DNA of 64,000 nucleotides from Candidatus Latescibacterota bacterium (GTDB lineage: Bacteria > Latescibacterota > UBA2968 > SICM01), in contig CBDCJO010000002.1 of NCBI GenBank assembly GCA_965217865.1, positions 5,632,001 to 5,696,000 on the forward strand, written 5' to 3'. How positions within the stretch are numbered: the stretch's first letter is position 1; each line of letters starts with the position of its first letter. This document shows positions 19,101 to 38,744 of this stretch, piece after piece. Under the pieces are notes generated by a model. The model was not told the origin of the DNA and made no database searches. It saw nothing but the letters and a program-made list of their open reading frames with translations. The translations under genes were made by a program, and so were the position numbers.

Positions 19101-19189
19101 ACGTTGCCTGTGCGGACCCTCCCTTCTCAACGTTCCCGAACGAAAGGGTTGACTCGGAAAGGGAGATTGTGGGTTCGGCAACCTGGTTC

Positions 19190-22100: not shown

Positions 22101-22280
22101 AATCGATTTTTGTGGCAAAAGAGTTTGCATCGATGGTTCCCGATGTGCTCGTGTTGCGATATACAGACATGGTATTCGAGTTGTTATTGGCCAAGATCAA
22201 ATCGGATTTTCCATCGCCATCTATATCGCCTATTGCCGCGCTTCGTGGAGAAGTTCCAGTGGTGAAGTCTACTTTGGCAG
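19190..22280 (-). repeat. FG-GAP/VCBS-type repeats (about 17 copies) plus two IPT/TIG units
   Basis: Recurrent AIGDLDGDGKPD...NTSTSGTIDANSFATKVDFTTGT and GDVDGDGDLDIAVGN units. Confidence 0.9.
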
Positions 22281-23189
22281 ATAGGGTCAATGCGTCGATG
22301 CCTGAGACTGTGGCTGTGAAAGTGGGCAGGAAGAAAGCATCCGAGATAGCGGTACGATTGTTGACTTGAACAGTGATTGGGGCGAACGTCGCGCCTGTCG
22401 GAACGGTGACGGTGAGCTGCGTTGTTGTAGCCGCAGTGACGGTGGCTTTTGTTGCGCCGAAGAAGACGGTGTTGTTGGCCGGGGTGGTATCGAAGTTGGT
22501 TCCGGTGATGGTGACGGAGGAGCCGACGACCCCCGAGGTGGGGGTGAAAGAGGTAATGGTGGGTGGATTCATCGCTGCTTCGAGCCCCATCATTCCGGCG
22601 GAATAGCTCTTATAGAAAAACTCACTGGCGCTGATGGTTAGTCCGTTGTTTGTCGCGAAATCGCCGCTACTGGACGCAAAGGTGATCGCGTCGAACCGGT
22701 CACCGTCGGACGGCGTGAAGCTGTTGATCAGAGTGACATTAAGCGTGCCGTCGAGTGTGGCTGTTCCACTGACCGCAAGCTGGTCGTACTCGGTGCTCAC
22801 AGTCGTACCGCCGATCTCGGAGTTCAGCGTTCCCGCGGAGGTCTGCGTGTAGTTTGCCCCCCCCGCCGACCGTAAAGCCGCTTCCCGATCCCACGGTCAG
22901 TGTTCCGGCATTGCTGATCGCACCCGCGCTCGTGAAGTTCGCGCCGTTCTTGATCTCGAAGCTGCCCCCGGATGCGTTGGTGGCGAAGTTGGCCAGGCCG
23001 GTTCCGCTCTGGATCTGGGCGCTCGCACCGTCAAGGATGATGGTCGCGGCGTTTGTGACTATGTCGGCCCCAGTGAAATTGAAAGTGGACTGGATGTCGT
23101 AGGTGCCGCCTGTCAGGGTCTGGGCGGAGAAGTTGGAGAAGCTTCCCGTAATGTCGATCGTGCCGGTCTGTACGTCCACCGTACCTGTA

Positions 23190-26100
23190 TTGTTGAACGG
23201 ATTAGCGATGGTGGAAGTCCCCGTGCCCGCAGACTTGCGAAACGTGCCGCTGTTGTTGAAGGTCCCAGCTGTGCCGGCATTCCAGTTCAGGAGGTTATTG
23301 CTCGTGAGATTGAACAGCGCACCGCTCTGGTTGTTCAGAACGGATGAGTTGTTCATGTAGAAAGTCCCCGCGGTCCAGGTCATCGTGCCGTTGTTGTTCA
23401 GCGTGGCCGTGTCGAGGAAGTCGCTGCTCGTAGATAGGGTGAGGATCCCGTCGTTCGTGAAAGTCGTGCCGTTGAGGGTGTTACCCGACAAAGTAAGTCC
23501 GTTCCCGGTGAAGTTGAACGTCGCACCACCCCCGGTCGCCGTGAAGGTGCCTGTGTTTTCCAATGTCCCGCTGATCGTGCCGGAAAAAGATCCCGAGAAC
23601 GAGTGGACCCCACTGTGGGTGACTGTCGCGCCGGAGGAGACCGTATAGGTCCCCCCCCCGTGTGGGTCCCACCCCCCGTGAAAGAGAGCGTCCCGGACTG
23701 GCCTTCGATCGCTCCACCGGTGTTGTTGAATATATCAACGATAGTGGAAATGCCTGCGCCCGCAGACTTGCGGAAGGTTCCTGTGTTGTTGAAAGTCCCT
23801 GTTCCAGTGGCACTCCAGCTCATGGTGTTATCGCTTTGCATATCGAAAAGCGCCCCACTCAGGTTATTCAGAACCGCAGGGCTGTTGATATAGAAGGTAC
23901 CCCCCGTCCAGGTGATCGTCCCGCTGTTATCGAGCGTACGGGTGTCCAGGGTACTGGTGCCGGTGGGAACGGTGAGGGTCGCTCCGGATTGAATCGTGGT
24001 GACACCTGAGCCCGACATCGTGCCTGCAGACCAGTTCATACTCCCTGTCACCGTAATGGTGTCCCCCCCCGTGACCGTGCCCCCGGTGACCTCGAAGTTC
24101 GAGGTGGAAAGACCACTGTTTACCGTCAGGGTGGCCCCGCCCACACGAACCGGACCCGCCCCGGGAAGCGTGACTCCCGCATTGAAAGTATGAGAACCCG
24201 TACTGAAATTGAGAAGCGCCCCGGAGGACACGTCGAAGGCCCCGGTGCTGGTCCCTCCCGAACTCATCACCACGGTCCCCGTCTGGACTTCTACCGTACC
24301 TGTATTGTTGAACGGATCGTCGATGCTCGAAGTCCCCGTGCCCGCTGACTTGCGGAACGTGCCGCTGTTGTTGAAGGTCCCTGCTGTACCGGCACTGACC
24401 GACATGGTGTGGTTGCCCGTGAGGTCGAACAGCGCACCGCTCTGGTTATTCAGAACCGCGGAGTTATTCATGTAGAAAGTCGCGGCTATCCAGGTCATCG
24501 TCCCGTTGTTGTTCAACGTGGCCGTGTCGAGGATGTTGGTGCCCGCAGACAGGGTGATAATCCCATCGTTCGTGAAGGTCGTGCCGTTGAGGGTGTTACC
24601 GGGCAAGCTGAGTCCATTCCCAATGAAGTTGAACGTCGCACCTCCTCCGGTGGCCGTAAATGTGCCCGTGTTTTCCAATGTCCCGCTGATCGTGCCGGAA
24701 AATGATCCCGAGAACGAGTGGACCGCACTGTGGGTGACTGTCGCACCGGAGGAGACCGTATAGGTCCCCCCCGTGTGTGTCCCACCCCCCGTGAACGAGA
24801 GCGTCCCGGACTGGCCTTCGATCGTGCCACCCGTGTTGTTGAATATATCAACGATGGTGGAAGTGCCTGCGCCCGCAGACTTGCGGAAGGTTCCTGTGTT
24901 GTTGAAAGTCCCTGTTCCAGTGGCACTCCAGCTCATGGTGCTATTGCTTTGCATATCGAAAAGCGCACCGCTCAGGTTGTTCAGAACCGCAGGGCTGTTG
25001 ATATAGAAGGTGCCCCCAGTCCAGGTGATCGTCCCGCTGTTATCGAGCGTACGGGTGTCCAGGGTACTCGTGCCCGTGGGAACGGTGAGGGTCGCTCCGG
25101 ATTGGATCGTGGTGACACCCGACCCCGACATCGTGCCTGCAGACCAGTTCATACTCCCTGTCACCGTAATGGTGTCCCCCCCCGTGACCGTGCCCCCGGT
25201 GAGCTCGAAGTTCGAGGTGGAAAGCCCACTGTTTACCGTCAGGGTGGCCCCACCCACACGAACCGGACCCACCCCGGGAAGCGTGACGCCCGCGTTGAAA
25301 GTATGAGAACCCGCGCTGAAATTGAGAAGCGCCCCGGAGGACACGTCGAAGGAGCCTGTGCTGGTACCCGATGAGGTGAACAACATCGTACCGGATTGCA
25401 CCTGGACGCTGTCCGTGTTATTGAACGGGTTACTGATGGTGGAAGTCCCCGTGCCCGCAGACTTGCGGAACGTGCCGCTGTTGTTGAAGGTCCCTGCTGT
25501 ACCGGCACTGACCGACATGAGGTGGTCGCCCGTGAGGTCGAACAGCGCACCGCTCTGGTTGTTCAGAACTGATGAGTTGTTCATGTAGAAAGTCGCGGCT
25601 ATCCAGGTCATCGTGCCGTTGTTGTTCAGCGTGGCCGTGTCGAGGATGTTGGTACCCGCAGACAGGGTGATAATCCCATCGTTTGTGAAAGTCGTGCCGT
25701 TGAGGGTGTTACCGGGTAAGGTAAGTCCATTTCCAATGAAGTTGAACGTGGCACCCCCCCCCGGTCGCCGTGAATGTGCCCGTGTTTTCCAATGTCCCGC
25801 TGATCGTGCCGGAAAATGATCCCGAGAAGGAGTGGACCGCACTGTGGGTGACTGTCGCGCCGGAGGAGACCGTATAGGTGCCACCCGTGTGGGTCCCACC
25901 CCCCGTGAACGAGAGCGTCCCGGACTGGCCTTCGATCGTTCCACCGGTGTTGTTGAATATATCAACGATGGTGGAAGTGCCTGCGCCCGCAGACTTGCGG
26001 AAGGTTCCTGTGTTGTTGAAAGTCCCTGTTCCAGTGGCACTCCAGCTCATGGTGTTATTGCTTTGCATATCGAAAAGAGCACCACTCAGGTTGTTCAGAA

Positions 26101-27400
26101 CCGCAGGGCTGTTGATATAGAAGGTACCCCCGGTCCAGGTGATCGTCCCGTTGTTGTCGAGCGTACGGGTGTCCAGGGTACTGGTGCCGGTGGGCACGGT
26201 GAGGATCGCTCCGGATTGGATCGTGGTGACACCCGACCCCGACATCGTGCCTTGCAGACCAGTTCATACTCGAGGTGGAAAGCCCACTGTTTACCGTCAG
26301 AGTGGCCCCGCCCACACGAACCGGACCCGCCCCGGGAAGCGTGACTCCCGCGTTGAAAGTATGAGAACCCCCGGTATAGTTGAGAAGCGCCCCGGAGGAC
26401 ACGTCAAAGACGCCAGTGCTGGTCCCTCCCGAACTCATCACCACGGTCCCCGTCTGGACTTCTACCGTACCTGTATTGTTGAACGGATCGTCGATGCTGG
26501 AAGTCCCCGTACCCGCAGACTTGCGGAACGTGCCGCTGTTGTTGATGGTCCCTGCTGTACCGGCACTCCAGCTCAGGGTGTTGTCGCTCGTGAGATCGAA
26601 CAGCGAACCGCTCTGGTTGTTCAGAACTGCGGAGTTGTTCAGGTAGAAAGTCCCTGCTGTCCAGGTCATCGTGCCGTTGTTGTTCAGCGTGGCCGTGTCG
26701 AGGATGTGGGTGCCCGTAGACAGGGTGATGATCCCGTCGTTGGTGAAGGTCGTGCCGTTGAGGGTGCTACCGGGCAAAGTAAGTCCATTTCCAATGAAGT
26801 TGAACGTCGCACCACCCCCGGTGGCCGTGAAGGTCCCCGTGGTTTGCAAAGTGCCGCTGATCGTGCCGGAAAAAGATCCCGAGAACGAGTGAACCGCACT
26901 GTGGGTGACTGTCGCGCCGGAGGAGACCGTATAGGTACCCCCAGTGTGGGTCCCATCCCCCGTGAACGAGAGCGTCCCGGACTGACCTTCGATCGTTCCA
27001 CCGGTGTTGTTGAAGGTATCAGCGACGGTGGACGTGGTCCCCCCCGCGGACTTGCGGATCGTGCCCGTGTTGTTGAAGGTCCCTGCTAAACCGACACTCC
27101 AACTCAGGAGGTTATTGCTTTGCATATCGAACAGCGCACCGCTCAGGTTGTTCAGAACTGCAGAGTTGTTCAGGTAGAAGGTCCCACCGGTCCAGGTGAT
27201 CGTCCCGCTGTTATCGAGCGTACGGGTATCCAGGGTACTGGTGCCGGCGGACAGGGTAAGGGTAGCGCCGGACTGAATAATGGTGCTATCTGACCCCGAC
27301 ATCGTGCCGCTCGACCATACCATGATGCTTGTCACAGTCAGGGTCCCGGCTCCCGTCAGTGTACCACCCGAAACCGTAAAGGAGTCGTTGACCGTGGAAG
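23190..27400 (-). repeat. About four near-identical 1113-bp (371-aa) tandem units
   Basis: Anchor GACATCGTGCC at 24014, 25127, 26241 and 27298 (spacings 1113, 1114, 1057). Each unit has two GTFNNxGTFRKSAGxGTSxI sub-repeats. Confidence 0.9.
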
Positions 27401-27801
27401 CAGCCGCGATGGAGATGCTGCCGCCTGAAAGGACCAATTTTTCGTCGCTGGTCAGGCTGTTGATCGTGGTGGTGCCCGAGGCGTGAGTTATTGTGGGCGT
27501 CCCGCCAACGCTGATCGTGACATCGTCGGATACGCCCGGGAGGACATCCCCGCTCCAGTTGATCGCGTCGCTCCAGGAGACACCGTCGCCCCCGCCGTCC
27601 CAGGAGATGGCCGCTGCAGCGGCTAAGGTGGGGAGGAGGAGGGAGAAGCAGATTGAAGATTGAAGATTGAAGACCGGACAGACTTAGGCGAGATAAGAAT
27701 TGGTTTGGAAGGCGGTTTTTGTGGAGAAGGGTGTTCATGTGACCAACGTATTCATGAAATGAAGGCCTTAGGTAGTCAAATAACGCCTTCTCTTACATAA
27801 T

Positions 27802-28167: not shown

Positions 28168-28275
28168 GAGATTAGGTTGGAGAGGCTCGGTTTTCGGGTG
28201 CTGCGATTTACTGACGGTGATGTCAAGCAGATCTCGAAGGCGACCTGCATGGGGATAGATGAGAATGGGATATGA
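28168..28275 (+). pseudogene. C-terminal remnant of a DUF559/Vsr-like endonuclease
   Basis: Reads EIRLERLGFRVLRFTDGDVKQ, the family's C-terminal motif; the 5' part is absent. Confidence 0.6.
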
Positions 28276-28397
28276 CCCACCCCGCCCCGGCTTAAGTCAC
28301 GCCGGGGCACCCCTCCCAAGAGGGGATTTTGGTTGGCGTTTCTTGGAATACGCCATGAAAATGAAAATCCCCTCCTTGGAGGGGATTTAGGGGTGGG
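28275..28397. repeat. CCCCTCC-N-GAGGGG palindromic repeats in inverted pair
   Basis: CCCCTCCCAAGAGGGGATT and AATCCCCTCCTTGGAGGGGATTTAGGGGTGGG, of the kind that usually flanks DUF559 genes. Confidence 0.55.
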
Positions 28398-28536
28398 TCT
28401 GATGAGGATGGAGTCCGGAATTGGAAAGATGAGAATGGGATATTGGTTGCGGCTGAGTGAAACGAAGCCCGCGATAGGTCTGACCCTAAATCGAATTCTG
28501 GTTATTCGTCACGATCATACTGAAAAGGATGGCCTC

Positions 28537-28564
28537 GTAGGGGGACGGCATGCCGTGCCCCTAC
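28537..28564. repeat. GTAG-type REP palindrome
   Basis: GTAGGGGGACGGCATGCCGTGCCCCTAC. Confidence 0.7.
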
Positions 28565-28586
28565 CTAACAGAATTCAAAATTCTTC

Positions 28587-28632
28587 TTGACATTCATATC
28601 CTTCTATTTTTATATTTAGCCTCACCAAAACA
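28587..28632 (+). promoter_or_regulatory. Promoter of the metal locus with overlapping candidate DtxR/MntR-family operator
   Basis: TTGACA-18 nt-TATATT runs directly into TTTAGCCTCACCAAAA, an imperfect TTTAG-N6-CTAAA-type palindrome. Confidence 0.55.
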
Positions 28633-28719
28633 TTTAATGGGATATTTCTAACTCATTTTTATCAGAAAGAACTAATTCTGATTTCATTCCCTGAAATAAT
28701 CAAACTAGAAGGAAACCCA

Positions 28720-28948
28720 GTAAATCACCCCGCCCAAAGGGCGGGGCATTAACCACTCCCCTCCCCAAACAGATCCAACTGTAGGGGCCCTTTCTGCTCT
28801 TGAAGATGAAACCGAATATATCCTCTGATCACTTTAGAAGTTACCTTTTCGACTACGGTACGGACAAAACAGCCTTTTAGCTTACCCTCAGCAAGCTAAA
28901 CTTTTCCTCCCCTTCCAAAGGAAGGGGTATCCAAGTTCAAATACTTTC
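28720..28948 (+). mobile_element. Non-autonomous IS200/IS605-superfamily element (ISC/IscB-type ends, omega-RNA-like interior)
   Basis: Left end GTAAATCACCCCGCCCAAAGGGCGGGGC and right subterminal hairpin TTCCTCCCCTTCCAAAGGAAGGGGTATCC. No ORF and no TSD. The 3' flank is ATGA. Confidence 0.75.
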
Positions 28949-30169
28949 ATGAACAAATCCATGTTGCTCAAATATTTTAATCTGGGATGCCTCCTGTTAT
29001 TCATCTCTCTTTCAGGATGTGGCCTTCTTACCAAGGCCCCGCTGGACCCGGACACACTGGAGGCTCCCTTCGAGGGAATGACAAATACCCTTAACGCAGC
29101 ATTTGGCAGGGGAGACGAAAATTTCGATCACGTCTTCACGATTAATGAGGGCCTCGGCCCCATCTTCAACCAGGCGGCTTGTTCCTCCTGTCACCCCGGG
29201 GATGGGAGAGGAAACCCGGAAGTCGGGCTGCTGATTCGTTTCAGCCGGGGAAGTGACCTGATTCCGCTCCTGGGAGGCCAGCAGCTTCAGAACCGGGCAA
29301 TCCCGGGGGTTAGTCCCGAGACACTCCCTCCCGGCGTGGACACCTCCCCTCGACTGCCCCCACCGGTGTTCGGTGTGGGTTTGATCGAGACCATTCCTGA
29401 GCAGACTATCCTCCAATTGGCAGACCCGGACGACCTGGATGGAGACGGCATATCCGGCCGACCCAACATGGTCTTTTCCCCTGACTGGGTCCCTTCAACC
29501 GAAGTTGGTAGCGGCCCGGGTCCACAACTGGGCCGCTTTAGCAGAAAAGCCCAGGTGTCCTCGCTGCTCCAACAGATCGCGGAGGCGTATCACCAGGATA
29601 TGGGGATCACAAACGACTTTCTGCCGGTCGAGAACTACAACCCCCAGACCGCGGGTGCGGTCTCTTCCGGAGACAAGGTCCCGGACCCCGAGATACCAGC
29701 CAGCGTTGTGTTCGAAACCGTCACATACGTCAGACTCCTGGCCCCACCGCGTCGAGGTGAGATCACCGAAGAGGTCCGGAGGGGAGAGACACTGTTTACG
29801 AGCATGGCGTGTCACCTGTGCCACGTCCCAACGCTCCGCACCGGACCCAGCACCGTCCCGCAGCTCAACAATGTCGAAATCAATCCCTACTCGGACTTCC
29901 TGATTCACGATATGGGTCCGGAACTAGCCGACCACCGCCCCGATGGAGATGCCGACGGATTCGAATGGAGAACCGCCCCCCTATGGGGCACCAGGCTTGT
30001 CGCAGAAAATCTGGGTGGAAAGCCCTTTTACCTCCACGACGGCCGAACCTCCGACCTTTCAGAGGCCATAAGGCTCCACGGCGGGGAGGCGAAAAATGCC
30101 AGGAACGCATTTATAGCGCTTACTCAGGGTGACCAGCAGGCCGTTCTGGCCTTCCTCGGCTCCTTGTGA
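28949..30169 (+). CDS. Di-heme oxidoreductase (DHOR) family c-type cytochrome lipoprotein
   Basis: Lipobox LSGC, GLGPIFNQAACSSCH, DPDDLDGDGISGR, CHLCH, WRTAPLWG, YLHDGR. Confidence 0.92.
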   Translation: MNKSMLLKYFNLGCLLLFISLSGCGLLTKAPLDPDTLEAPFEGMTNTLNAAFGRGDENFDHVFTINEGLGPIFNQAACSSCHPGDGRGNPEVGLLIRFSRGSDLIPLLGGQQLQNRAIPGVSPETLPPGVDTSPRLPPPVFGVGLIETIPEQTILQLADPDDLDGDGISGRPNMVFSPDWVPSTEVGSGPGPQLGRFSRKAQVSSLLQQIAEAYHQDMGITNDFLPVENYNPQTAGAVSSGDKVPDPEIPASVVFETVTYVRLLAPPRRGEITEEVRRGETLFTSMACHLCHVPTLRTGPSTVPQLNNVEINPYSDFLIHDMGPELADHRPDGDADGFEWRTAPLWGTRLVAENLGGKPFYLHDGRTSDLSEAIRLHGGEAKNARNAFIALTQGDQQAVLAFLGSL

Positions 30170-30176
30170 GAGGCGA

Positions 30177-30599
30177 GTGAACCTTTCACGTCGATCATTC
30201 CTGATACAGGCCGGGGTTGCGGCCATCCCCCTGGTTCCCGGGTGCGCCACGATTGGACTCGCCACGCATAGGGTCCCCCTCGAGGAGGGCAAGGCCACGA
30301 TTCAGATCAAGGATTTCCCCGAGCTATCGGTGATGGGAGGTGGGATCAAGATTAGGGCAGGGGGATTGGCGGACCCGATCTTCCTGGTCCATCTTGATCA
30401 TGCTCGATATATCGCCCTCTCAGCAGTTTGCACCCACCTGGGGTGTCTTGTTCGAAAACAAAATACCTCCTTCCGTTGCCCGTGCCACGGTTCGACTTAT
30501 GACCTGGAGGGAAACGTCTTGCGGGGGCCGGCTCAAGAGCCTATGACGCCTTTGAGGACGGAGGTCGATGAAACTAAGGTGACCATATTTTTTGGTTGA
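30177..30599 (+). CDS. Tat-exported Rieske [2Fe-2S] lipoprotein
   Basis: SRRSFL twin-Arg motif, VPGC lipobox, CTHLGC and CPCHGS boxes; GTG 30177 follows GAGG. Confidence 0.9.
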   Translation: MNLSRRSFLIQAGVAAIPLVPGCATIGLATHRVPLEEGKATIQIKDFPELSVMGGGIKIRAGGLADPIFLVHLDHARYIALSAVCTHLGCLVRKQNTSFRCPCHGSTYDLEGNVLRGPAQEPMTPLRTEVDETKVTIFFG

Positions 30600-30644
30600 A
30601 TATCCTCAGGAAATCAGGAGGATTTAATAAAAAAAGGAATTCCC

Positions 30645-31901
30645 ATGATTTCAAGGAATCTAAAAACAGGCATACTCCTCTTTTATACGGCGGTTTTCGC
30701 AGGATGGGGAACCCCCGCTGAGAGTCAGGAAGTGAATACCGCGGACGATGCCCAGGCCGGAGCAACCCGATCGGTGGAAGGAATCTCGTCCGCCGACACT
30801 GTGTTTTCTTCCCGTCGCGGAAAGCCCGTCATTCGGGGCGGGTACGCGGACAAACCCTTCATCACCCGACTGGGCGGCCGAACGACGATCGGTGGCTATG
30901 CGGAAGCCGAATTTCGCTACGATCAGGTGGCAGGGATCACAGAGGAGGCGACCTTCGTGCCCCGTCGATTCAACCTCTTCACCTATTCCGCGGTATCCGA
31001 CAGGGTGAGCATTGGGTCGGAGCTTGAAATCGAGGAGATGGGGGAGGAGATCAAGCTGGAATATGCCACCATCGACTTCATCGTCCACGAAGCCGTGAGT
31101 TTCAGGGGCGGGGTGATCCTCTCCCCCCTCGGGAAATTTAACCTTGCCCACGACGCCCCATTTAACGATCTTGTCGATCGTCCTCTTGTCTCGACGGAGA
31201 TCATCCCGACGGCACTGTCCGAGCCCGGAATGGGACTGTTCGGGGCGCTCTATCCTTCCGAAGCGTCACGGATCACCTACGAAATCTATGGCGTAAACGG
31301 TTTCAATGAGGGACTTCTCGAAGACAGCGACAGGACCACGCTCCCAAACGGCAAGGGGACGGTCGAGGATAACAACAACCACCCTTCATTTGTGGGACGC
31401 GTCTCCATCAGTCCCAGAGAGGGGATCGAACTGGGGGGATCCTTCCACGCAGGACCCTATAACGTCTATGAAGTGGAGGGATTGAAAGTGGCAGAGCGCC
31501 AAAACCTCTCGATCTTCGCGATCGATTACGAACTCCGTCACGATCGCTGGGAGCTTCTCGGGGAATACGCACGGGCTCACGTGGATATTCCGAACGCCAT
31601 ATCCGACCTGTTCGCAAGGCGCCAGCAGGGCATCTATGCCCAGGTCAACAGTCACTTCGGGAGAGGGTTTTTTCCTGATCTGCCCCATTCCTTGTTTACG
31701 GGAACCTTCCGTTACGATTTTGTCGATTTCGATTCCGAGGCCACGGGTGATTCACAATGGAAACTCACCTTCGGCCTGAACTTCAGGCCCACCGAGGATA
31801 CCGTCTTCAAACTGAACTATATCCGGGGCCGGGAGACGGATGCGGTGCCGCTCTCCGTGGATAGTGCGGCCTTTCTATTCGGGGTCGCAACATATTTTTA
31901 A
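30645..31901 (+). CDS. Outer-membrane porin-like beta-barrel
   Basis: Signal peptide, IGGYAE, SELEIEE...LEYA, EIIPTALSEPG and a C-terminal GVATYF barrel signal. Confidence 0.8.
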   Translation: MISRNLKTGILLFYTAVFAGWGTPAESQEVNTADDAQAGATRSVEGISSADTVFSSRRGKPVIRGGYADKPFITRLGGRTTIGGYAEAEFRYDQVAGITEEATFVPRRFNLFTYSAVSDRVSIGSELEIEEMGEEIKLEYATIDFIVHEAVSFRGGVILSPLGKFNLAHDAPFNDLVDRPLVSTEIIPTALSEPGMGLFGALYPSEASRITYEIYGVNGFNEGLLEDSDRTTLPNGKGTVEDNNNHPSFVGRVSISPREGIELGGSFHAGPYNVYEVEGLKVAERQNLSIFAIDYELRHDRWELLGEYARAHVDIPNAISDLFARRQQGIYAQVNSHFGRGFFPDLPHSLFTGTFRYDFVDFDSEATGDSQWKLTFGLNFRPTEDTVFKLNYIRGRETDAVPLSVDSAAFLFGVATYF

Positions 31902-31987
31902 CCCCGTGAGGTCGGCAGTCGTGAAACCGAAAGGACGACGCTCCGTATCACGTTTTACTTTTCACGTTTGAAGTATGGAGTCCTTAG

Positions 31988-32674
31988 ATGATGGAGCAGG
32001 AGACGAAGGAGAACGGAGGAAAGCTCACCCACGCCATTGAAGACTATCTTAAATTCATTTTTAAACTTCAGGCGTCCGGGGAGAAGGTCACGACATCCGC
32101 CATCGCGGAACGAATGCACGTGTCCGCGGCCTCCGTCACCAGCATGATAAAAAAGCTGGCCGAGGCGAACCTGCTGACCCATACCCCCTATCACGGGGTC
32201 GATTTGACCCCCGGAGGAAAGAAGATCGCCCTCGAGATCATCCGGCATCATCGCCTCCTGGAGCTTTACCTGGCCGATACCCTCGGTTTCAGCTGGGACA
32301 CCGTCGATGAGGAGGCCGAAAGGCTCGAGCACGTTATCTCCGAGGAATTCGAAGCAAAAATCGACAAGGCCCTCGGGAACCCGACCATCGATCCCCACGG
32401 CTCGTCCATTCCGACTGAGAATGGGAATATGGATCAGGTCGATTGCGTACAGTTGTCCAGTCTGCAAAAAGGTCGTCGTGCAATCATCCGCCAGGTCAGC
32501 GATCGAGACCCCGATATGCTGCGCTACATGGCCAGTATCGGGCTCCATCTCGAAACACCCGTCGAAGTCATCGACAGGGCCCCCTTCAACGGCCCGGTAA
32601 CCATCGGGGTCGGGACGGACCAGCACGCCATTGGTCTGGAACTGGCGGATCATATTTTTGTTACCGTATCATGA
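31988..32674 (+). CDS. DtxR/MntR-family metal-dependent repressor with C-terminal FeoA domain
   Basis: IEDYLKFIF, TTSAIAERMHVSAASVT, RHHRLLELYL, EAERLEHVIS, DPHGSSIP. Confidence 0.95.
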   Translation: MMEQETKENGGKLTHAIEDYLKFIFKLQASGEKVTTSAIAERMHVSAASVTSMIKKLAEANLLTHTPYHGVDLTPGGKKIALEIIRHHRLLELYLADTLGFSWDTVDEEAERLEHVISEEFEAKIDKALGNPTIDPHGSSIPTENGNMDQVDCVQLSSLQKGRRAIIRQVSDRDPDMLRYMASIGLHLETPVEVIDRAPFNGPVTIGVGTDQHAIGLELADHIFVTVS

Positions 32675-32801
32675 AATTCAATATCGGCTCACCTCCGAAG
32701 CGGTGGGGATCCGACGGGTCTGCCCGACGTTATCTTCCCTTCTTAATAACTCTTAAAGTCGGGCTAAAATATATCCTTCATTCAAAAAATAGGGTTCCTC
32801 T

Positions 32802-34004
32802 ATGATTGATCCTCTCGGTGTCCTGCTGGTTGCCTGTGCGATCACGGCAGTGGGATGCGCGCTGTTCTGGCGCGGGCGCAGCTTTTTCGGGCGTCTGCAG
32901 CGCGTCCACCGGATGATAACTAAAGCGGACTCCAAATCACGTCGAGGTTTTCTCCTGGCAGGCGGAGCATCCCTTCTTGGGGTATTGGGGGTCGGCGGAC
33001 GGCGTGCCTTTGGCCCTGCGATCCCTTCCTCCATTGGCCTTGTTGCGCAAGCAGAAGGGCAGGAGGCAGTAAAATCAGAAGTGGGATTGCATGCCCATCG
33101 TATGGGCACAGTCGGAGAGATTCAACCGGGTGACTTCGACCCGATGCGCTATTTGACCGCGTGGAACTTTAATGATTTGGCTCCTGAAGAACGCGAGAAC
33201 TACTACCGGGAAACGCCACGACCCAACGGGACGCTCCTGCGGGAATATGAGTTTGTGGCCGTGGACAAAGAGATTGAAATTGCACCCGGGGTCTTTTTCC
33301 CTGCATGGACATATAACGGGCAGGTTCCGGGTCCCACCATTCGCGCCACCGAAGGTGACCACGTCCGCATTCGCTTCCGCAATCAGGGCTCCCATCCGCA
33401 CACCATCCACTTTCACGGCTGGCATCGCCCCGAGATGGACGGGGCATTTCCGGATCAGTTTGTCTATCCCGGGGATGAATTTCTTATCGAATTTGATGCC
33501 GACCCTGTTGGAATCCACCTCTATCATTGCCACTCCCTGCCGCTAAAACGCCATATCCATAAGGGACTGTACGGCAATTATATTGTGGATCCACGGGAAC
33601 CGAGACCTCCCGCTCGAGAGTTGATCATAATGATGAATGGCTTTGATACGAACTTTGACGGCGAAAACGAAATCTATGCGGCCAATACCGTTGCCTTTTA
33701 CTACATGAATCATCCGATTCAGGTCAAAGTTGGCGAACTGGTGCGCGTGTATCTGGTCAATGTCACGGAATTTGACCCGGTTAACTCGTTCCATCTTCAC
33801 GGAGCGTTTTTCGATGTGTATCGGACGGGGACGCGCCTGCACACGGATGAGTTCACCGATACGGTTATGATGTGTCAGGGGGAACGGGCGATCCTGGAAG
33901 TAACGCTCCGGTATCCGGGGCGTTACATGATTCATGCGCATCAGTCCGAGGTCGCCGAGCTGGGATGGATGGGTATCATTCAGGCCGTAAGCTCTTCAGT
34001 GTGA
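32802..34004 (+). CDS. Two-domain multicopper oxidase (type C-like), Tat substrate
   Basis: SRRGFL. Domain 1 has HTIHFHG and HCHSLPLKRHIHKGL (type-1 Cu site). Domain 2 has FHLHG and IHAHQ (no type-1 Cys). The true start may be ATG 32913. Confidence 0.9.
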   Translation: MIDPLGVLLVACAITAVGCALFWRGRSFFGRLQRVHRMITKADSKSRRGFLLAGGASLLGVLGVGGRRAFGPAIPSSIGLVAQAEGQEAVKSEVGLHAHRMGTVGEIQPGDFDPMRYLTAWNFNDLAPEERENYYRETPRPNGTLLREYEFVAVDKEIEIAPGVFFPAWTYNGQVPGPTIRATEGDHVRIRFRNQGSHPHTIHFHGWHRPEMDGAFPDQFVYPGDEFLIEFDADPVGIHLYHCHSLPLKRHIHKGLYGNYIVDPREPRPPARELIIMMNGFDTNFDGENEIYAANTVAFYYMNHPIQVKVGELVRVYLVNVTEFDPVNSFHLHGAFFDVYRTGTRLHTDEFTDTVMMCQGERAILEVTLRYPGRYMIHAHQSEVAELGWMGIIQAVSSSV

Positions 34005-34026
34005 TACGTAAAAGGAGTAAGAAGCA

Positions 34027-35274
34027 ATGAACGTGGATCCTCATCGCGAATCCAGAGATACATCACATCACGAGAAGAAAAGTCTATCGTCCTGGGTTTT
34101 CATCTTTTTACCACTTGTCCTGCTTGGCATTTTGATCGTCATTCTGCAGACCTACGGCCCCGGCAAAGCCTTGCGTAGCCATTTCCCGCCCGTGGAGGAG
34201 ATCGCGTTTCAGCGCATTGTGCTCCGGGACCAAGAGGCGGCCGATAAACGCCCGAAAGAGATCATTTTGCACATCCTCAACGATGGTCCCAGTGAGACGA
34301 CCGTAGCGCAGGTGATGGTGGATGAAGCGTATTGGCCCTTCGAGATCAGGCCAAAGGCAACACTCAAGCACCTGGAGAGTGCTCAGGTTCATCTGTTTTA
34401 TCCCTGGGTGGAGGGGGAGACACACGAAGTCACACTCATCACCTCAACAGGCCTGACTTTCAGCGAAGAGATCGAAGTTGCCGTAGAATCTCCGAGCCCC
34501 AATTGGACCTATCTGGGTATCTTTTCCCTGTTAGGGGTCTATGTGGGTGTGATTCCCGTTTTCATAGGGCTGCTCTGGTTTCCGGCCATGCAAAATGTGA
34601 GCGCAAGAGGGCTGCATTTCCTCCTGAGCTTAACCGTGGGATTGCTGGTCTTTCTTGCAGTGGACGCGCTCCACGAAGCCCTTGAAGTCGCCGAGGAATT
34701 GCCGGAGGCCTATGAGGGTGTTGCGCTGGTCACGGCCGGATTTGCAGGCTGCTTGCTGCTTCTGATGACCATTTCTCGATGGGCGCGCACTCAGGCGGCC
34801 CAACGCGGTGAGACATTCCAACGGATGGTACTTGCCTACATGATTGCATTTGGGATCGGCTTACACAACTTGGGAGAGGGGCTTGCCATCGGTTCGGCAT
34901 ATGCGCTTGGGAATATCGCACTGGGAGGATTATTGGTGATCGGTTTTGCCGTTCATAATACGACCGAGGGTTTCGCCATCGTGGCTCCGGTTGCGAAACA
35001 GCGGGTCGCTTTTCGCAACTTTATCTGGATGGGAGCTCTTGCGGGTGTGCCGACGATTCTGGGCGTGTGGATCGGCGGCTTTACCTATTCGGCGGTCTGG
35101 TCCGTGCTGTTTCTCAGCATCGGAGCAGGCGCGATTGTGCAGGTCATTTATGTCATCCTATGTCAGATGGCACGCCAACCCGAAGACGCGGGGGTGCTGA
35201 CGCCCCACAATTTTGGCGGCTTGTTGGTGGGTTTTTTGATTATGTACTCGACAGGGCTTCTGGTCACGTTCTGA
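34027..35274 (+). CDS. ZIP (GufA-like) divalent metal transporter with N-terminal extracytoplasmic domain
   Basis: IGLHNLGEGLAIG and HNTTEGFAI metal-binding helices; N-terminal TM plus about 110-aa soluble domain. Confidence 0.92.
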   Translation: MNVDPHRESRDTSHHEKKSLSSWVFIFLPLVLLGILIVILQTYGPGKALRSHFPPVEEIAFQRIVLRDQEAADKRPKEIILHILNDGPSETTVAQVMVDEAYWPFEIRPKATLKHLESAQVHLFYPWVEGETHEVTLITSTGLTFSEEIEVAVESPSPNWTYLGIFSLLGVYVGVIPVFIGLLWFPAMQNVSARGLHFLLSLTVGLLVFLAVDALHEALEVAEELPEAYEGVALVTAGFAGCLLLLMTISRWARTQAAQRGETFQRMVLAYMIAFGIGLHNLGEGLAIGSAYALGNIALGGLLVIGFAVHNTTEGFAIVAPVAKQRVAFRNFIWMGALAGVPTILGVWIGGFTYSAVWSVLFLSIGAGAIVQVIYVILCQMARQPEDAGVLTPHNFGGLLVGFLIMYSTGLLVTF

Positions 35275-35305
35275 ATCCTTTGTCGTCACCTCTTAAAAAG
35301 AGGGA

Positions 35306-35719
35306 ATGGAGATGTTCGGTCCCAGTTTTCGACACAGAATTTCTCAGGTAATTGGCTTTGCTCTCCTTTTAATAGGTATTACACTTGTCGCTGTCGAGGC
35401 GATGCGGGATAGGCCAAATGTCACTTTCGAGGTCGTTGCGGAAAATCTGGTTTTCAGGGGAAATAACCCGACACTTTATGCGAGGCCCGGCTCAAAAGTA
35501 AAACTGATCTTCCGCAATGAATCGCGTGGCATCGAACACCATCTCGCAGTAGAGGGGCTCAACGTGGAAACTGACATTCTTCTACCTGGAGAGCGTGAGG
35601 AGATCAGCTTCTCAGTGCCGCTGCGAGATACGGTCCTGACCTATGCCTGTATGCTGCACCCAATGATGAAGGGTAAATTCGTAGTGGGAAATCCGGATAT
35701 CACTAGCGCATCCCGATAA
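35306..35719 (+). CDS. Membrane-anchored cupredoxin-domain protein
   Basis: N-terminal TM; IEHHL...YACMLHPMMKG type-1 copper ligands. Confidence 0.85.
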   Translation: MEMFGPSFRHRISQVIGFALLLIGITLVAVEAMRDRPNVTFEVVAENLVFRGNNPTLYARPGSKVKLIFRNESRGIEHHLAVEGLNVETDILLPGEREEISFSVPLRDTVLTYACMLHPMMKGKFVVGNPDITSASR

Positions 35720-35776
35720 AACCCTACATAAAAGCCAGTCAGAAAGGTTAAAATGCAGCCAAGTGATACTAACCCG

Positions 35777-35870
35777 AAGGCGGTTTACAAGCTTCAAAAG
35801 GGCCGCGGATCCGGGAGACATGGTGAAGATGTCTGTGATCGCCGAGAAGATGAAGGTGTCCTCAGCTTCT
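35777..35870 (+). pseudogene. 5' remnant of a second DtxR-family gene
   Basis: KAVYKLQ, then after a frame change VKMSVIAEKMKVSSAS, matching KFIFKLQ...VTTSAIAERMHVSAAS of the intact copy at 31988. Confidence 0.7.
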
Positions 35871-36040
35871 TGGATGGTTCATAGAGTTCGAACGCTGCCT
35901 CACACTTGGCTTCAGAAAGCATCCATCGACAGCTCTCTCACGCCTTTTCACGTCTCTTCACCTCCCTTCTCCTGAACTTTTCGATTGTCAGTTTTTTGTC
36001 AAAATTGTGACACGGCACGAACCATTATGGAATGGAGCGT

Positions 36041-36199
36041 ATGCTCTTCAGCCTGGTTCACAACCCCTGTTCGACGACGATCTATACCATCTGGAAGGAG
36101 ATCGGGAGCGTCAAGTGGACCGCTGTCTCCTCACTCCTGCCCGTAGTGATGGGCCTCATGATCTGCTTTTTTGTTGCCCAGGTGTGGGGATTATTTTAG
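36041..36199 (+). pseudogene. feoB: 3' remnant of a FeoB-type ferrous iron permease
   Basis: Below the ORF-track cutoff. MLFSLVHNPCSTTIYTIWKEIGSVKWTAVSSLLPVVMGLMICFFVAQVWGLF* matches the FeoB C-terminal PCxxT...KE.G..KW pattern. Confidence 0.75.
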
Positions 36200-36242: not shown

Positions 36243-36273
36243 AGGGGCGGATCACGTCGATCCGCCCCTTTTT
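36243..36273 (+). terminator. Intrinsic terminator closing the metal locus
   Basis: AGGGGCGGATC-ACGTC-GATCCGCCCCT followed by a T-run. Confidence 0.85.
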
Positions 36274-36333
36274 ATTTATATAGAATAAGAATTTACGGGC
36301 GGAATTCCAGGTTACATCATACCCTGGCCTCTA

Positions 36334-36368: not shown

Positions 36369-37913
36369 ATGGTCTTATCTTTTTTATTTATTGGGTTAAT
36401 CCTGTTTTTCTGTCCAACCCGAATCCTTGCAACCGGTGTTCTCCACCTGGAGACGCTCGGGGACCACAAGTGGGCGACCTGCGGTACTCCTGAGCTCATG
36501 GCCGCACATGCCAACCGGGATCTGCTCCCGGAGAAGACCCGTCGCGGTCTTTCCCTTTTTCAGACAAGGCCTTCGACTCAAAGTCAATACACCAGCCCAT
36601 CAGGACAGTTCCGTATACACTATGATACGAACGGCACCCATGCCGTTGAGCAGACCGACCTGACCGGCAATAGTGTGCCGGACTACGTGGATGCGGTCGC
36701 TGCCACCGCGGACAGCACATGGTCCTTTCAGGTCGGCCAACTCGGGTATCAATCTCCCCGAACGGACAATACTGCCGGGGGCGGACGAGATGAGGTCGAT
36801 ATCTATATCCGGGAATTTGGTTCCCGGGGATTTTACGGGATCGCATATCCTGTTAACAACACCGGCCTCATCGCTTCCGGGTACCTGGAAATCGACAACA
36901 ACTATACCGACGAAATCTATCCGAGCCAGGGATTAGCGGGTCTCAGGGTGACCATAGCCCACGAATTCTTTCACGTCATTCAGTTCGGTTATTACAGTTC
37001 TTTCGATGCAGCCTGGTGGCAGGAGAGCACCGCCACCTGGATGGAGGATATCGCATACCCCGAGGTCAACGACTACTACCAGTACCTGCCCGACTTTTTT
37101 ATCGACCCCACTATTTCCCTTGATCGGTTCCTTTTTCGTGATCGTCATCCTTTCGGCTCAACTGTATTTATTCACAACCTGAATTCCGTGTTCGGTCCTT
37201 CGGTCATCCGAACCTCCTGGGAACAGCTTGGCGTCCAGAAGAACTGGAGCCTCGGCCTGATCGACGAAGTCCTGACCGGTGGGTTCGACCAGGTCCTTCC
37301 CAGGTTCGCAACCTGGAACTATTTTACGGAGACACGTAGCCTCCCCGGTTACTATCCTGAAGCGTCCGCCTATCCGCTTATCCTGGTACAAGACATATCC
37401 CTGAGGTTCGGACAGTCCACGACAACGAGCGGCCAGATGGACCATCTTGCGGCCGACTATATTCGAATTGAACCGCCCTCCTTTGAACCCGGTGGTCTGT
37501 CCGTCAACCTGACCCTCGATACCCGCGCGAAATGGAAAGTCTCCGCCCTGCTTGTCGGATCCGGAGGCTTCGAGATTATGGAGGAGACCGGAAGGGAATT
37601 CCGAATACCGATGTGGAATCAGTACAAAGAGATCGTCATCATACCTGTGTGCCTTACTCAAACGGGGTCGGGCTATACGTATCAGGTAAGGGCAGAGGTC
37701 CGGGGCGACATCCTCAAACCCGCGAGTGCCATCGGTGACTTTATCCGGAACGGGATAGTCGATTTCGATGATTTCTTCCTTTTCGTCAATGGTTTCGGAA
37801 AGACGGCGGCGGATTCCGATTTCAACGTAATCTTCGACCTCAACGGGGACGGGGCCATAGACCTCGACGATTTTTTCATCTTCGCCGATCATTTCGGGGA
37901 AAGTACCACATAA
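36369..37913 (+). CDS. Secreted zinc metalloprotease (MXAN_6640-like) with C-terminal EF-hand/dockerin-like tail
   Basis: CGT propeptide, FRIHY, AHEFFHVIQ...WWQESTATWMED; tail GDFIRNGIVDFDDFF...DLNGDGAIDLDDFF. Confidence 0.85.
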   Translation: MVLSFLFIGLILFFCPTRILATGVLHLETLGDHKWATCGTPELMAAHANRDLLPEKTRRGLSLFQTRPSTQSQYTSPSGQFRIHYDTNGTHAVEQTDLTGNSVPDYVDAVAATADSTWSFQVGQLGYQSPRTDNTAGGGRDEVDIYIREFGSRGFYGIAYPVNNTGLIASGYLEIDNNYTDEIYPSQGLAGLRVTIAHEFFHVIQFGYYSSFDAAWWQESTATWMEDIAYPEVNDYYQYLPDFFIDPTISLDRFLFRDRHPFGSTVFIHNLNSVFGPSVIRTSWEQLGVQKNWSLGLIDEVLTGGFDQVLPRFATWNYFTETRSLPGYYPEASAYPLILVQDISLRFGQSTTTSGQMDHLAADYIRIEPPSFEPGGLSVNLTLDTRAKWKVSALLVGSGGFEIMEETGREFRIPMWNQYKEIVIIPVCLTQTGSGYTYQVRAEVRGDILKPASAIGDFIRNGIVDFDDFFLFVNGFGKTAADSDFNVIFDLNGDGAIDLDDFFIFADHFGESTT

Positions 37914-37916
37914 AGG

Positions 37917-38744
37917 ATGATCTCTCTCAAAAACCCCCAGGAGATTGAACTGATTCGGGCGAACTGCCGGCTCGTCGCCGAGGCTCACCGTGCGATCCGG
38001 GAGCTTATCGTCCCGGGGACCACTACGGCGGAATTGGACCAGATCGTAGAGCGTCTCATCCGGGCCCAGGGGGCCGACCCGGCCTGGAAAGGTTACCACG
38101 GTTATCCTGCAACCATCTGTGCGTCGGTCAACGCGCAGATTGTCCACGGGGTTCCCGGCCAGGTTCCATTGCAAGACGGGGACATTATTGGAATTGATAT
38201 CGGTTCCCGGATGAGGGGCTTCTATGGAGATCAGGGCTATACCTATCCGGTCGGACACGTCTCGGAGGAGACCTGGAGGTTGATGCGGATCACCCTGGAA
38301 TCACTCTACAAGGGGATCGATCAGGCCCGCCCCGGCAACCGTCTCGAGGACATAACCGGACAGATCCAGAGATGGGTAGAATCGCACGGCTACTACATCG
38401 TCCGGAATTTTGTCGGGCACGGGATTGGGAGAAAACTGCACGAGGAACCCCAGATTCCAAATTATGCCCCTCTGGAGAAGAATCCCAGATTGAAACCCGG
38501 GATGGTCTTTTGCATCGAACCGATGGTTAACATGGGCACTGAGGAAGTCGTCGTCGCATCCGATAATTGGACGGCCGCAGCCGCGGACGGCCTCCCTTCG
38601 GCGCACTACGAACACATCATCGTTATCACTTCGGATGAACCCGAGATTTTAACCGAGGCTCTCGAGGACGAGACCCCGTCCCTGGAGCGGATACGACTTT
38701 CGAAGGCGGTTGACGAAGGGGCGGTCACGGAATTTTCAAAATAA
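37917..38744 (+). CDS. map: Methionine aminopeptidase type I
   Basis: CASVNAQIVHGVP, DIG...GD, GHGIGRKLHEEP, IEPM, SAHYEH. Confidence 0.96.
   Translation: MISLKNPQEIELIRANCRLVAEAHRAIRELIVPGTTTAELDQIVERLIRAQGADPAWKGYHGYPATICASVNAQIVHGVPGQVPLQDGDIIGIDIGSRMRGFYGDQGYTYPVGHVSEETWRLMRITLESLYKGIDQARPGNRLEDITGQIQRWVESHGYYIVRNFVGHGIGRKLHEEPQIPNYAPLEKNPRLKPGMVFCIEPMVNMGTEEVVVASDNWTAAAADGLPSAHYEHIIVITSDEPEILTEALEDETPSLERIRLSKAVDEGAVTEFSK

Follow-up and report, generated by a model that had tools for sequence, protein, structure and literature searches.

Apparent replacement of an mntR-feoB operon by a multicopper oxidase-ZIP permease cassette in Latescibacterota genomes

The 64,000-nucleotide (nt) stretch of Candidatus Latescibacterota bacterium DNA analyzed here (GenBank assembly GCA_965217865.1, contig CBDCJO010000002.1, positions 5,632,001 to 5,696,000; referred to as the window) contains seven consecutive genes that encode putative metal-uptake proteins. 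Three of the genes form what we call module A (DHOR-Rieske-porin). Module B consists of a multicopper oxidase (MCO) gene and a ZIP permease gene, with an optional cupredoxin gene, and a DtxR/MntR-family repressor gene lies between the modules. The explanation that we prefer, to which we give a little better than an even chance, is that these are two separate modules with one type of regulatory box and that module B took over the job of an mntR-feoB operon, which was likely to import Mn(II) and, as a second cargo, Fe(II). The anatomy of the locus, the scars of the operon, the loss of the operon from four scarred genomes, and the common box are the observed part of this explanation. Below, G000 is the host genome of the window and the other G numbers are relatives in the phylum; X numbers are sequencing runs, L numbers are loci extracted from genomes or metagenomes, and P numbers are database protein sequences.

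Results

The cassette lies between the two ends of an mntR-feoB operon

The gene order in G002 was Rieske-porin-dtxR-mntR (twin FeoA)-feoB(N)-feoB(C), and G001 had the same order after DHOR, with one extra gene. The mntR product of G001 and G002 was a 339-amino-acid (aa) DtxR-family protein, and two FeoA domains were found in the proteins of G001, G002, and G036. In the window, the first 37 and last 55 codons of this operon bracketed module B, and a broken dtxR gene preceded the feoB end. The first-pass annotation had missed that the MCO open reading frame (ORF) starts with the 5' end of another gene, and it had also missed the dtxR and feoB remnants downstream of the cupredoxin gene.

G078, G049, and G050 also had this cassette and both of its scars; these and G000 were the only 4 of the 168 phylum genomes with the module B cassette. 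The cassette core showed 84-93% DNA identity across three families and two classes. Identity was 78-86% at fourfold-degenerate sites of the ZIP gene, compared to 88-92% at the protein level; the scars were 59-77% identical in a comparison that left out G049. The twin-FeoA regulator was present in 51 of the 168 phylum genomes, including 21 of 22 in family f4 (the family of G078) and both of the family f1 relatives of G000, and it was absent from all four scarred genomes. All 23 cassette-free family relatives kept the mntR-feoB operon.

The slot was particularly clear in family f4. Five f4 relatives had the order mntR-feoB(N)-feoB(C)-dtxR-HExxH protein-map, and G078 had mco-zip-cup-feoB end-dtxR-HExxH protein-map. 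The feoB remnant of G078 was 88% identical to that of its relative G095 and 71-77% identical to the remnants beside other cassettes. Because the f4 slot order was kept and the feoB end matched G095 so closely, the swap in G078 appears to have occurred in place and separately from that in G000. Judged from these sequence comparisons, module B appears to have replaced the mntR-feoB operon in the scarred genomes, and the import of divalent metal (probably Mn, perhaps Fe) has likely passed to the oxidase-ZIP trio.

The wider complement of importers was also compared. FeoB_C was found in 152 of the 168 genomes and in none of G000, G049, and G050. It was missing in 3 of the 6 phylum genomes that carried this ZIP type versus 13 of the 162 others (Fisher p 0.012, a value overstated by kinship). 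G078 lost the operon and kept a second FeoB, and G000 had three NRAMP-family matches.

At five loci (L215, L216, L217, L224, and L202), a cadA/zntA-like ATPase gene was arranged head to head with an mntR-feoB operon of the twin-FeoA type or with what stood in its place. This pairing, which was also seen near plasmid loci, hints that Mn import is paired with Zn/Cd export.

Modules A and B are conserved separately

Because crude ORF calling gave shadow ORFs in GC-rich loci, gene content in the neighborhood survey was taken from tblastn and Pfam matches. DHOR matches were found in 32 of the 41 genomes of the relatives search (self counted). The DHOR-porin set comprised 23 fetched loci in which a DHOR gene was followed by a porin gene; long-class DHORs and loci with no porin were left out. 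A Rieske gene lay in between in 20 of the 23, and an MCO, ZIP, or cupredoxin gene was found in none of the 23, for 16 of which at least 6.5 kb of downstream DNA was fetched. The ZIP survey covered 65 metagenome loci, many on short contigs and several from one lineage. An MCO gene was located directly 5' of ZIP in 62 of the 63 loci with upstream DNA, and the 65 loci had 12 cupredoxin, 25 DtxR, 1 DHOR, and 0 Rieske matches. Plasmids carried the module B ZIP as well (148 records; alphaproteobacteria, actinobacteria, cyanobacteria, bacilli, and haloarchaea). MCO preceded ZIP in each of the five plasmid loci that were read, and the third gene was a Rieske gene in two and a cupredoxin gene in one. 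Module B is a recently spread cassette, and module A occurs commonly throughout the class in divergent forms.

The first-pass annotation had read the seven genes as one system. The survey did not bear this out, as the halves are conserved separately and have different histories. The halves did occur together elsewhere, a matter on which that reading had been made to depend: module A was found 2.7-14 kb from module B in G078, G049, and G050. The order or orientation of the modules differed among the scarred genomes. In G078, module A was 5.5 kb from module B on the opposite strand, with a cadA-like ATPase gene and a transposase gene in between. In G049, it was 2.7 kb downstream of module B, with a frameshifted DHOR gene, a stop in one porin copy, and an intact module B, and in G050 it was about 14 kb downstream. 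Module A also flanked the intact mntR-feoB slot in G001, G002, G077, and G079 and was less than 8 kb from it in G036. Its position near module B in the four scarred genomes can be explained because module B sits in a slot that module A often flanks, and inheritance from the slot is the simpler cause of most of the adjacency.

Module A is not tied to FeoB everywhere. A listed FeoB_C was found within 7 kb of at least 6 of 50 best-class porin matches versus at least 25 of 48 second-class porin matches, in a comparison that used 49 listed FeoB positions chosen by shared contig, with 52 further positions unlisted. At L067, module A was followed by dtxR and an NRAMP fragment; at L050, it was divergent from dtxR; and on Bacteroidota plasmids, it lay beside ferritin or heavy-metal exporter genes. 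A second-class porin gene was also part of a feoA-feoB-porin-PepSY_TM-ApbE operon (L195:3242-9480, contig C6 of G001), an arrangement that suggests flavin-dependent reductive iron uptake.

Proteins of module B

The MCO matched PDB entries 7RAB (E 1.5e-104) and 3GDC (E 6e-99). With residues counted from position 32802, a type 1 (T1) copper site was found in domain 1 only (H200/C243/H251/L256, with Leu as the axial ligand), and domain 2 carried N328 and A379 at the T1 positions. The eight His residues of the trinuclear center (H203, H205, H242, H244, H331, H333, H378, and H380) were invariant in 33 of 33 sequences, and at least 15 acidic residues were also invariant. A T1 site in domain 1 only together with eight interdomain His residues is the pattern that we take to mark type C two-domain MCOs. 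Assignment to the copper nitrite reductase NirK was rejected because the TIGR02376 score was 108.7 bits (cut-off 296.3) and because eight His residues were present instead of a three-His type 2 site. The JGI label "manganese oxidase" on MCO relatives is automatic and was not counted as evidence. Close MCO relatives (P0001-P0010; 67-72%) were fused to a C-terminal AhpC/TSA redoxin domain, and one of these was named as coming from Planctomycetes.

The ZIP protein scored 34.7 bits against PF02535 (cut-off 35.1), and residues 159-406 aligned with BbZIP (E 4e-5). It contained the motifs HNLGEG and HNTTEG, with a predicted transport site of H280/N281/E284 and H310/N311/E314 whose ligands were invariant in 38 of 38 sequences. 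Plasmid relatives are named "ZIP family metal transporter" in RefSeq. The protein also had a conserved outer (extracytoplasmic) domain of about 110 aa with invariant D99/E100/Y102/W103. This domain was found in 510 clusters at 50% identity. Among the matches listed with a tail of at least 60 residues, 83 of 96 ran on from the outer domain to the membrane domain of ZIP, and most others looked truncated or frameshifted. An Atlas feature search with the outer domain returned nothing at 0.8 or above.

One clean MCO-ZIP fusion was found (P0084; 730 aa), as a single sequence from a single contig. Six other apparent fusions (P0062, P0057, P0131, P0150, P0246, and P0264) were rejected as frameshift read-through artifacts. 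Close coupling of oxidase and permease is suggested by the almost obligatory adjacency of their genes, by the dedicated outer domain, and by the P0084 fusion. The cupredoxin carried H78/C115/H118/M121 as putative type 1 ligands and fell below the cut-off of PF13473.

The repressor, the box, and the identity of the metal

The primary site of the repressor was D19/E111/E114/H115, which is the Mn-type Asp/Glu/Glu/His arrangement and not Met/Cys/Glu/His. The former is described as the Mn-specific type in the DtxR family (PMC4805248). The same pattern, with Asn for Asp in four cases, was found in regulators neighboring other module A and module B loci. The repressor gene was inherited along with module A (72-75% identity to G001 and G002). 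It scored 201 bits against NF047407 (equivalog cut-off 350), and its nearest solved structures were 5ZR4, 8PVT (the Mn sensor DR2539), SloR, and ScaR (E 4e-46 to 1e-26), with IdeR/DtxR structures at E 2e-25 at best.

The sequence TTTAG-N6-CTAAA, with at most one mismatch, was present in 26 of 50 upstream regions, compared to shuffle means of 0.56 and 0.65 (200 shuffles each). These were 15 of 23 module A regions and 11 of 27 module B, regulator, and feo-control regions. The N6 spacing was the best of six and was picked after the results were seen; the five other spacings gave 0-4 of 50. By this measure, modules A and B appear to have a DtxR-family box in common. The box upstream of DHOR had the best score in the 64-kb window and ranked 11th of the 35 sites with at least 15 bits that a weight-matrix scan found across the G000 genome, which formed no coherent regulon. 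At L173, a perfect TTTAG-N6-CTAAA box lay between an imelysin operon and an MCO-ZIP pair.

In Porphyromonas gingivalis, a twin-FeoA MntR is reported to be co-encoded with the Mn-transporting FeoB2 (PMC4805248), and Mn-type FeoBs are also described elsewhere (PMC8749426). In the five plasmid loci, a RefSeq mntR gene was divergent from MCO-ZIP in two, TMEM165/GDT1 was nearby in two, and a heavy-metal P-type ATPase gene was present in four. Locus L134 ran into a ZnuA/TroA ABC system. Mn has about an even chance of being the main cargo of module B, Fe has a smaller chance that we still regard as substantial, and Cu or Zn seems improbable. Mn appears the more likely because of the Asp/Glu/Glu/His site, the nearest structures, the plan of the P. 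gingivalis MntR-FeoB2 operon, the other FeoB of G078, and the mntR, TMEM165, and TroA-type neighbors.

Proteins of module A

The DHOR protein matched PF06537 at 216 bits (cut-off 22) and had CxxCH motifs at residues 78 and 288. An alignment-based structure model (predicted local distance difference test score, 92.8; predicted template modeling score, 0.91) had a di-heme peroxidase fold. The six top VIA-align matches were of this type (Z 14.3-16.3; next unrelated match, below 5), with root mean square deviations of 3.2-4.1 Å over 221-245 residues at 12-23% identity, and a Foldseek match had an E value of 3e-6. This is the first structural assignment that our searches found for the family, which has no match by sequence in the PDB.

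Q114 was present in 22 of 22 short-class sequences and E124 in 59 of 62 sequences; their spacing is presumably that of the peroxidase catalytic pair. The invariant His377 aligned with a Met of Nitrosomonas europaea CcP that we take to be a heme ligand. With the ligand roles assumed in this way, heme 1 is predicted to be of the peroxidase type and heme 2 to be bis-His. Conservation of Q114 and E124 is only suggestive of peroxidase activity. The Rieske lipoprotein is a likely redox partner of DHOR, and possible roles of module A are removal of peroxide during metal entry or direct metal redox. At L048:8292-11176, a CCP_MauG di-heme peroxidase gene lay directly 5' of a short-class DHOR gene with no Rieske or porin gene.

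The Rieske protein matched PF00355 with CTH/CPCH, and R5, R6, C23, and the cluster ligands were invariant in 19 of 19 sequences. A bc1/b6f Rieske subunit was rejected (TIGR01416, 55.9 bits with a cut-off of 97.4; no cytochrome b among the seven genes). The putative porin had a C-terminal Phe, was rich in acidic residues (58 D+E versus 37 K+R), and gave weak barrel matches. No Pfam family, PF07396 included, matched it above cut-off. The label Porin_O_P-like is a well-supported lead because of the C-terminal Phe and an Atlas language-model feature score of 0.97 to Porin_O_P-like clusters, 14-75% of whose members are PF07396. In G001 only, a 386-aa protein (L046:3536-4693) was encoded between Rieske and porin. 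It had no Pfam or NCBIfam match and is a possible cytochrome-porin fusion, with a C-terminal Phe and an N-terminal CxxCH whose context we take to be a Cyc2-like motif.

Anatomy and integrity of the locus

The features of the locus are listed in Table 1. The seven ORFs ran in one direction, with the MCO ORF opening at 32802 and intergenic gaps of 7, 45, 86, 127, 22, and 31 nt, in order. ORF calls and matches to Pfam, NCBIfam, and the PDB confirmed the seven same-strand genes and the metal-binding motifs that the first-pass annotation had claimed. Its remark that neither imelysin nor Ftr1 is present holds genome-wide: profile searches found no imelysin (PF09375) and no FTR1 (PF03239) in the G000 genome, which is 96% complete with 9% contamination (the search control was positive in 4 of 14).

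Table 1. Features of the module A-module B locus (window coordinates)
Position	Strand	Feature	Status
28587-28616	+	σ70-type promoter-like site, 11/12 consensus matches	candidate
28615-28630		DtxR-family box TTTAG-N6-CTAAA, one mismatch; overlaps the -10 element	
28949-30169	+	Module A: DHOR/DUF1111 di-heme c lipoprotein; lipobox-like LSGC; bCcP/MauG-superfamily fold	
30177-30599	+	Module A: small Rieske [2Fe-2S] protein; GTG start; twin-arginine (Tat) signal; predicted Tat lipoprotein	
30645-31901	+	Module A: predicted outer-membrane beta-barrel, Porin_O_P-like	
31988-32674	+	DtxR/MntR-family repressor with FeoA domain; Mn-type primary site	
32743-32770	+	Weak promoter-like site with degenerate box at 32753-32768 (two mismatches); may be chance	
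32802-32912	+	5' scar: codons 1-37 of the twin-FeoA mntR gene, encoding one hydrophobic helix and read in frame with MCO	
32913-34004	+	Module B: Tat-signal two-domain multicopper oxidase; ATG at 32913	
34027-35274	+	Module B: ZIP permease; N-terminal anchor and extracytoplasmic domain	
35306-35719	+	Module B: membrane-anchored type 1 cupredoxin	
35753-35875	+	Frameshifted dtxR-family gene remnant (E 3e-4)	
36029-36196	+	3' scar: final 55 codons of feoB; 73% to the FeoB membrane part of G001 (E 6.5e-22)	
36243-36279	+	Intrinsic-terminator-like hairpin at the end of the unit	

Misassembly at the dtxR-mco junction was ruled out because contigs from three of the four runs examined (X4, X7, and X10) spanned it with 0-10 differences; one of the four runs may be the source sample of the window. 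The dtxR remnant after the cupredoxin gene was longer in G049 and G050, and positions 35721-35825 were missing from the X7 and X10 contigs. A segment of 230-250 nt between 28712 and 28964 was missing from the X7 and X2 contigs, so the insert between promoter and DHOR is recent; in the X7 and X2 strains, the promoter-like site falls about 100 nt from the DHOR start. Several palindromic repeats at 28270-28950 had very high depth in the runs examined.

Upstream, on the minus strand, 16657-27683 held a very large gene for a repetitive surface protein with Gly/Thr-rich repeats, which was split into overlapping frames. FG-GAP-like and Ig-like stretches were seen by eye, and the frame breaks are either assembly errors or true frameshifts. 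Downstream, 36369-38744 encoded an MXAN_6640-family HExxH protein with a dockerin domain and then methionine aminopeptidase (map). An HExxH-map pair formed the downstream border of the feo slot throughout family f4. The single Fe/Mn superoxide dismutase match of G000 (L225, G000:C2:5618035) was about 43 kb from the locus and 14 kb before the window, and the host genome carried two COX1 genes.

Discussion

Under the preferred explanation, the DtxR/MntR protein would repress the unit when metal is plentiful. The ZIP protein would carry a divalent ion because its transport site is the ordinary divalent one. The Tat-exported oxidase and the anchored cupredoxin would act at the periplasmic domain of ZIP, with electrons passing from reduced metal to O2 and the cupredoxin (the Rieske protein on some plasmids) serving as the electron shuttle to the oxidase. 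We infer that the substrate would most likely be competing Fe(II) or Cu(I), whose oxidation would let a promiscuous importer run in air. Such a guard oxidase is preferred over a channeled oxidized ion because oxidases yield higher-valent ions, which ZIPs are not known to transport. PMC11817551 counts ZIPs with the carriers of divalent ions and describes ferric permeases as rare. Module A would be a separate envelope unit that serves whichever inner-membrane importer is present (FeoB, NRAMP, or MCO-ZIP), and direct electron transfer from module A to module B would be unnecessary. More tentatively, and clearly less probably, MCO-ZIP-cupredoxin might be a third kind of oxidase-coupled importer, a physical ZIP-based machine that is spreading into FeoB operons, with module A as an interchangeable envelope front end for FeoB, NRAMP, or this machine.

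Several observations weigh against the preferred explanation. Module A lies near module B in all four scarred genomes, and selection for co-location is possible. A 1777-nt contig from run X10 contains the start of DHOR and an 88%-identical MCO gene head to head, about 0.4 kb apart. The boxes of the window itself are degenerate. TTTAG-N6-CTAAA is described as the site of the Mn-sensing DR2539 (bioRxiv 2024.02.12.579695) and also as that of the iron-sensing TroR (PMC10783522); because both bind it, the box would name the family and not the metal. G000, G049, and G050 are without any FeoB, and module B may be their iron route. At L173:16-5079, a porin-imelysin-DHOR operon of the iron type is head to head with MCO-ZIP. 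The four scarred genomes are not four independent events, as G049 and G050 belong to a single genus. The 5' scar may also have arisen only once, since it is 72% identical between G000 and G078 versus 53-62% between G078 and intact operons.

The rival with the best claim, although rather unlikely, is that module B is an oxidase-coupled iron importer like Fet3/Ftr1 with ZIP in the place of Ftr1, in which cupredoxin and MCO would oxidize Fe(II) and the outer domain of ZIP would capture the iron and pass it along. Module B stands in for a FeoB, FeoB_C is missing from half of the ZIP carriers, the MCO has a Leu axial ligand and its invariant acidic residues, and D99/E100 of the ZIP outer domain are invariant; the divergent imelysin operon at L173, the match of the box to the TroR site, and the clean P0084 fusion point the same way. 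However, ZIPs are classed as divalent carriers, with ferric permeases described as rare (PMC11817551), the transport site is unchanged, the regulators carry Mn-type ligands, and P0084 is one sequence from one contig in a set whose other fusions read as frameshift artifacts. Copper uptake, in which the MCO would turn Cu(I) to Cu(II) for import by ZIP as proposed for archaeal MCO1, fits a divalent carrier chemically, and some plasmid loci lie among copper genes. In Nitrososphaera viennensis, MCO1 and its permease are reported to be modestly up at Cu limitation (log2 0.81 and 1.33; PMC7785015). Nevertheless, module B replaces a feoB operon and is controlled by DtxR/MntR regulators instead of copper sensors, and the archaeal model is called unvalidated by its authors (PMC7785015), so copper uptake seems quite unlikely here.

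A single periplasmic relay of all seven products, in which DHOR, Rieske, cupredoxin, and MCO would set the Fe or Mn oxidation state for ZIP, was the model of the first-pass annotation. It accounts for the one strong promoter-like site before DHOR, the one terminator after the feoB remnant, and the common box, and also for the nearness of module A (at most 14 kb) in G078, G049, and G050, the head-to-head X10 contig, and Rieske as the third gene in some plasmid modules. Yet each half is widespread alone, order and orientation vary among the four genomes with transposases or cadA in between, module B is intact in G049 despite a frameshift in DHOR and a stop in one porin copy, and module B also occurs in organisms that lack an outer membrane (Gram-positive bacteria and haloarchaea). 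The relay is improbable on this evidence, and what stands of that model is a metal-uptake role under DtxR/MntR control. Finally, module B could be a mobile passenger that recombined into feoB, destroyed it, and supplied nothing instead. Its mobility (148 plasmid records; 84-93% identity across classes) and the NRAMP-family genes of G000, which could cover the loss, would allow this, but the same slot was hit in at least two separate events, and all four genomes have the three genes unbroken, with identity higher in protein (88-92%) than at fourfold ZIP sites (78-86%), while the scars decay. We regard a mere passenger as very unlikely.

A pair of the same kind as MCO-ZIP, MCO1 with an adjacent ZIP permease, is found in ammonia-oxidizing archaea and has reportedly been credited to Kerou 2016 as well. 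For this pair (NVIE_000600/000590), oxidase-assisted copper uptake is proposed (PMC7785015, PMC7819960), and the lineage 1 MCOs are described as confined to thaumarchaeal genomes (PMC7785015). The two systems are alike in the two-domain MCO with T1-T3 sites, the Leu axial ligand, the lack of an extra blue-copper domain, and the gene linkage to ZIP (PMC7785015). Unlike the archaeal pair, module B is bacterial, comes with a cupredoxin as a separate protein and with a repressor and box of the DtxR/MntR kind, and appears to have replaced a FeoB operon; the last of these points to Mn/Fe rather than Cu. The claim that the combination of genes is uncharacterized is supported: a bacterial MntR-MCO-ZIP unit, a DHOR-Rieske-porin module, and a FeoB replacement were not described in the literature searched, which included few subscription papers and no supplements. 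The MCO-ZIP pair itself is not wholly new, being known from these archaea (PMC7785015).

Fet3p/Ftr1p and EfeUOB also combine an exported oxidase with an inner-membrane permease under a metal sensor (PMC11817551, PMC3143127). They differ from module B, which has a ZIP permease with a divalent site and a two-domain instead of a three-domain MCO, with no FTR1 or EfeO/imelysin in G000. The same differences apply to FtrABCD, which we take to be an oxidase-permease system of the same plan. In alignment, the two-domain MCOs 7RAB/7RAC and 3GDC have the same copper-ligand pattern as the MCO of the window. The lost operon resembles the MntR-FeoB2 operon of P. gingivalis (PMC4805248) in gene plan and domains, the two features compared, with a twin-FeoA DtxR-family regulator and feoB. 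In contrast to that operon, feoB is split in two in the relatives, and their regulator starts with a hydrophobic helix and carries Glu for the Cys108 described in the P. gingivalis protein.

For module A, the imelysin-DUF1111 (DHOR)-DUF1513 operons likewise place a DHOR lipoprotein in a metal-uptake setting, and in Leptospira such an operon is reported to be induced by iron chelation (PMC3143127, bioRxiv 10.1101/072470, PMC13066512). In module A, by comparison, Rieske and porin replace imelysin and DUF1513, the DHOR protein is shorter (about 406 versus 460-490 aa), and the box is of the DtxR type. The DHOR model shares its fold with the bCcP/MauG/MbnH/BthA di-heme peroxidases; it differs from them in its low identity and in His377 at the CcP Met position.

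What is new here is module B as the apparent replacement of an mntR-feoB operon; a seven-gene relay is unlikely. The MCO-ZIP pair is widespread, yet only a copper hypothesis from archaea stands behind it, and it presents a chemical puzzle, that of a carrier for divalent ions which hardly ever occurs apart from an oxidase. The finding of value is the repeated replacement of FeoB. Repeated in-place replacement of the mntR-feoB operon amounts to a natural complementation experiment, which says that MCO-ZIP is likely able to do the work of a FeoB-type Mn/Fe importer.

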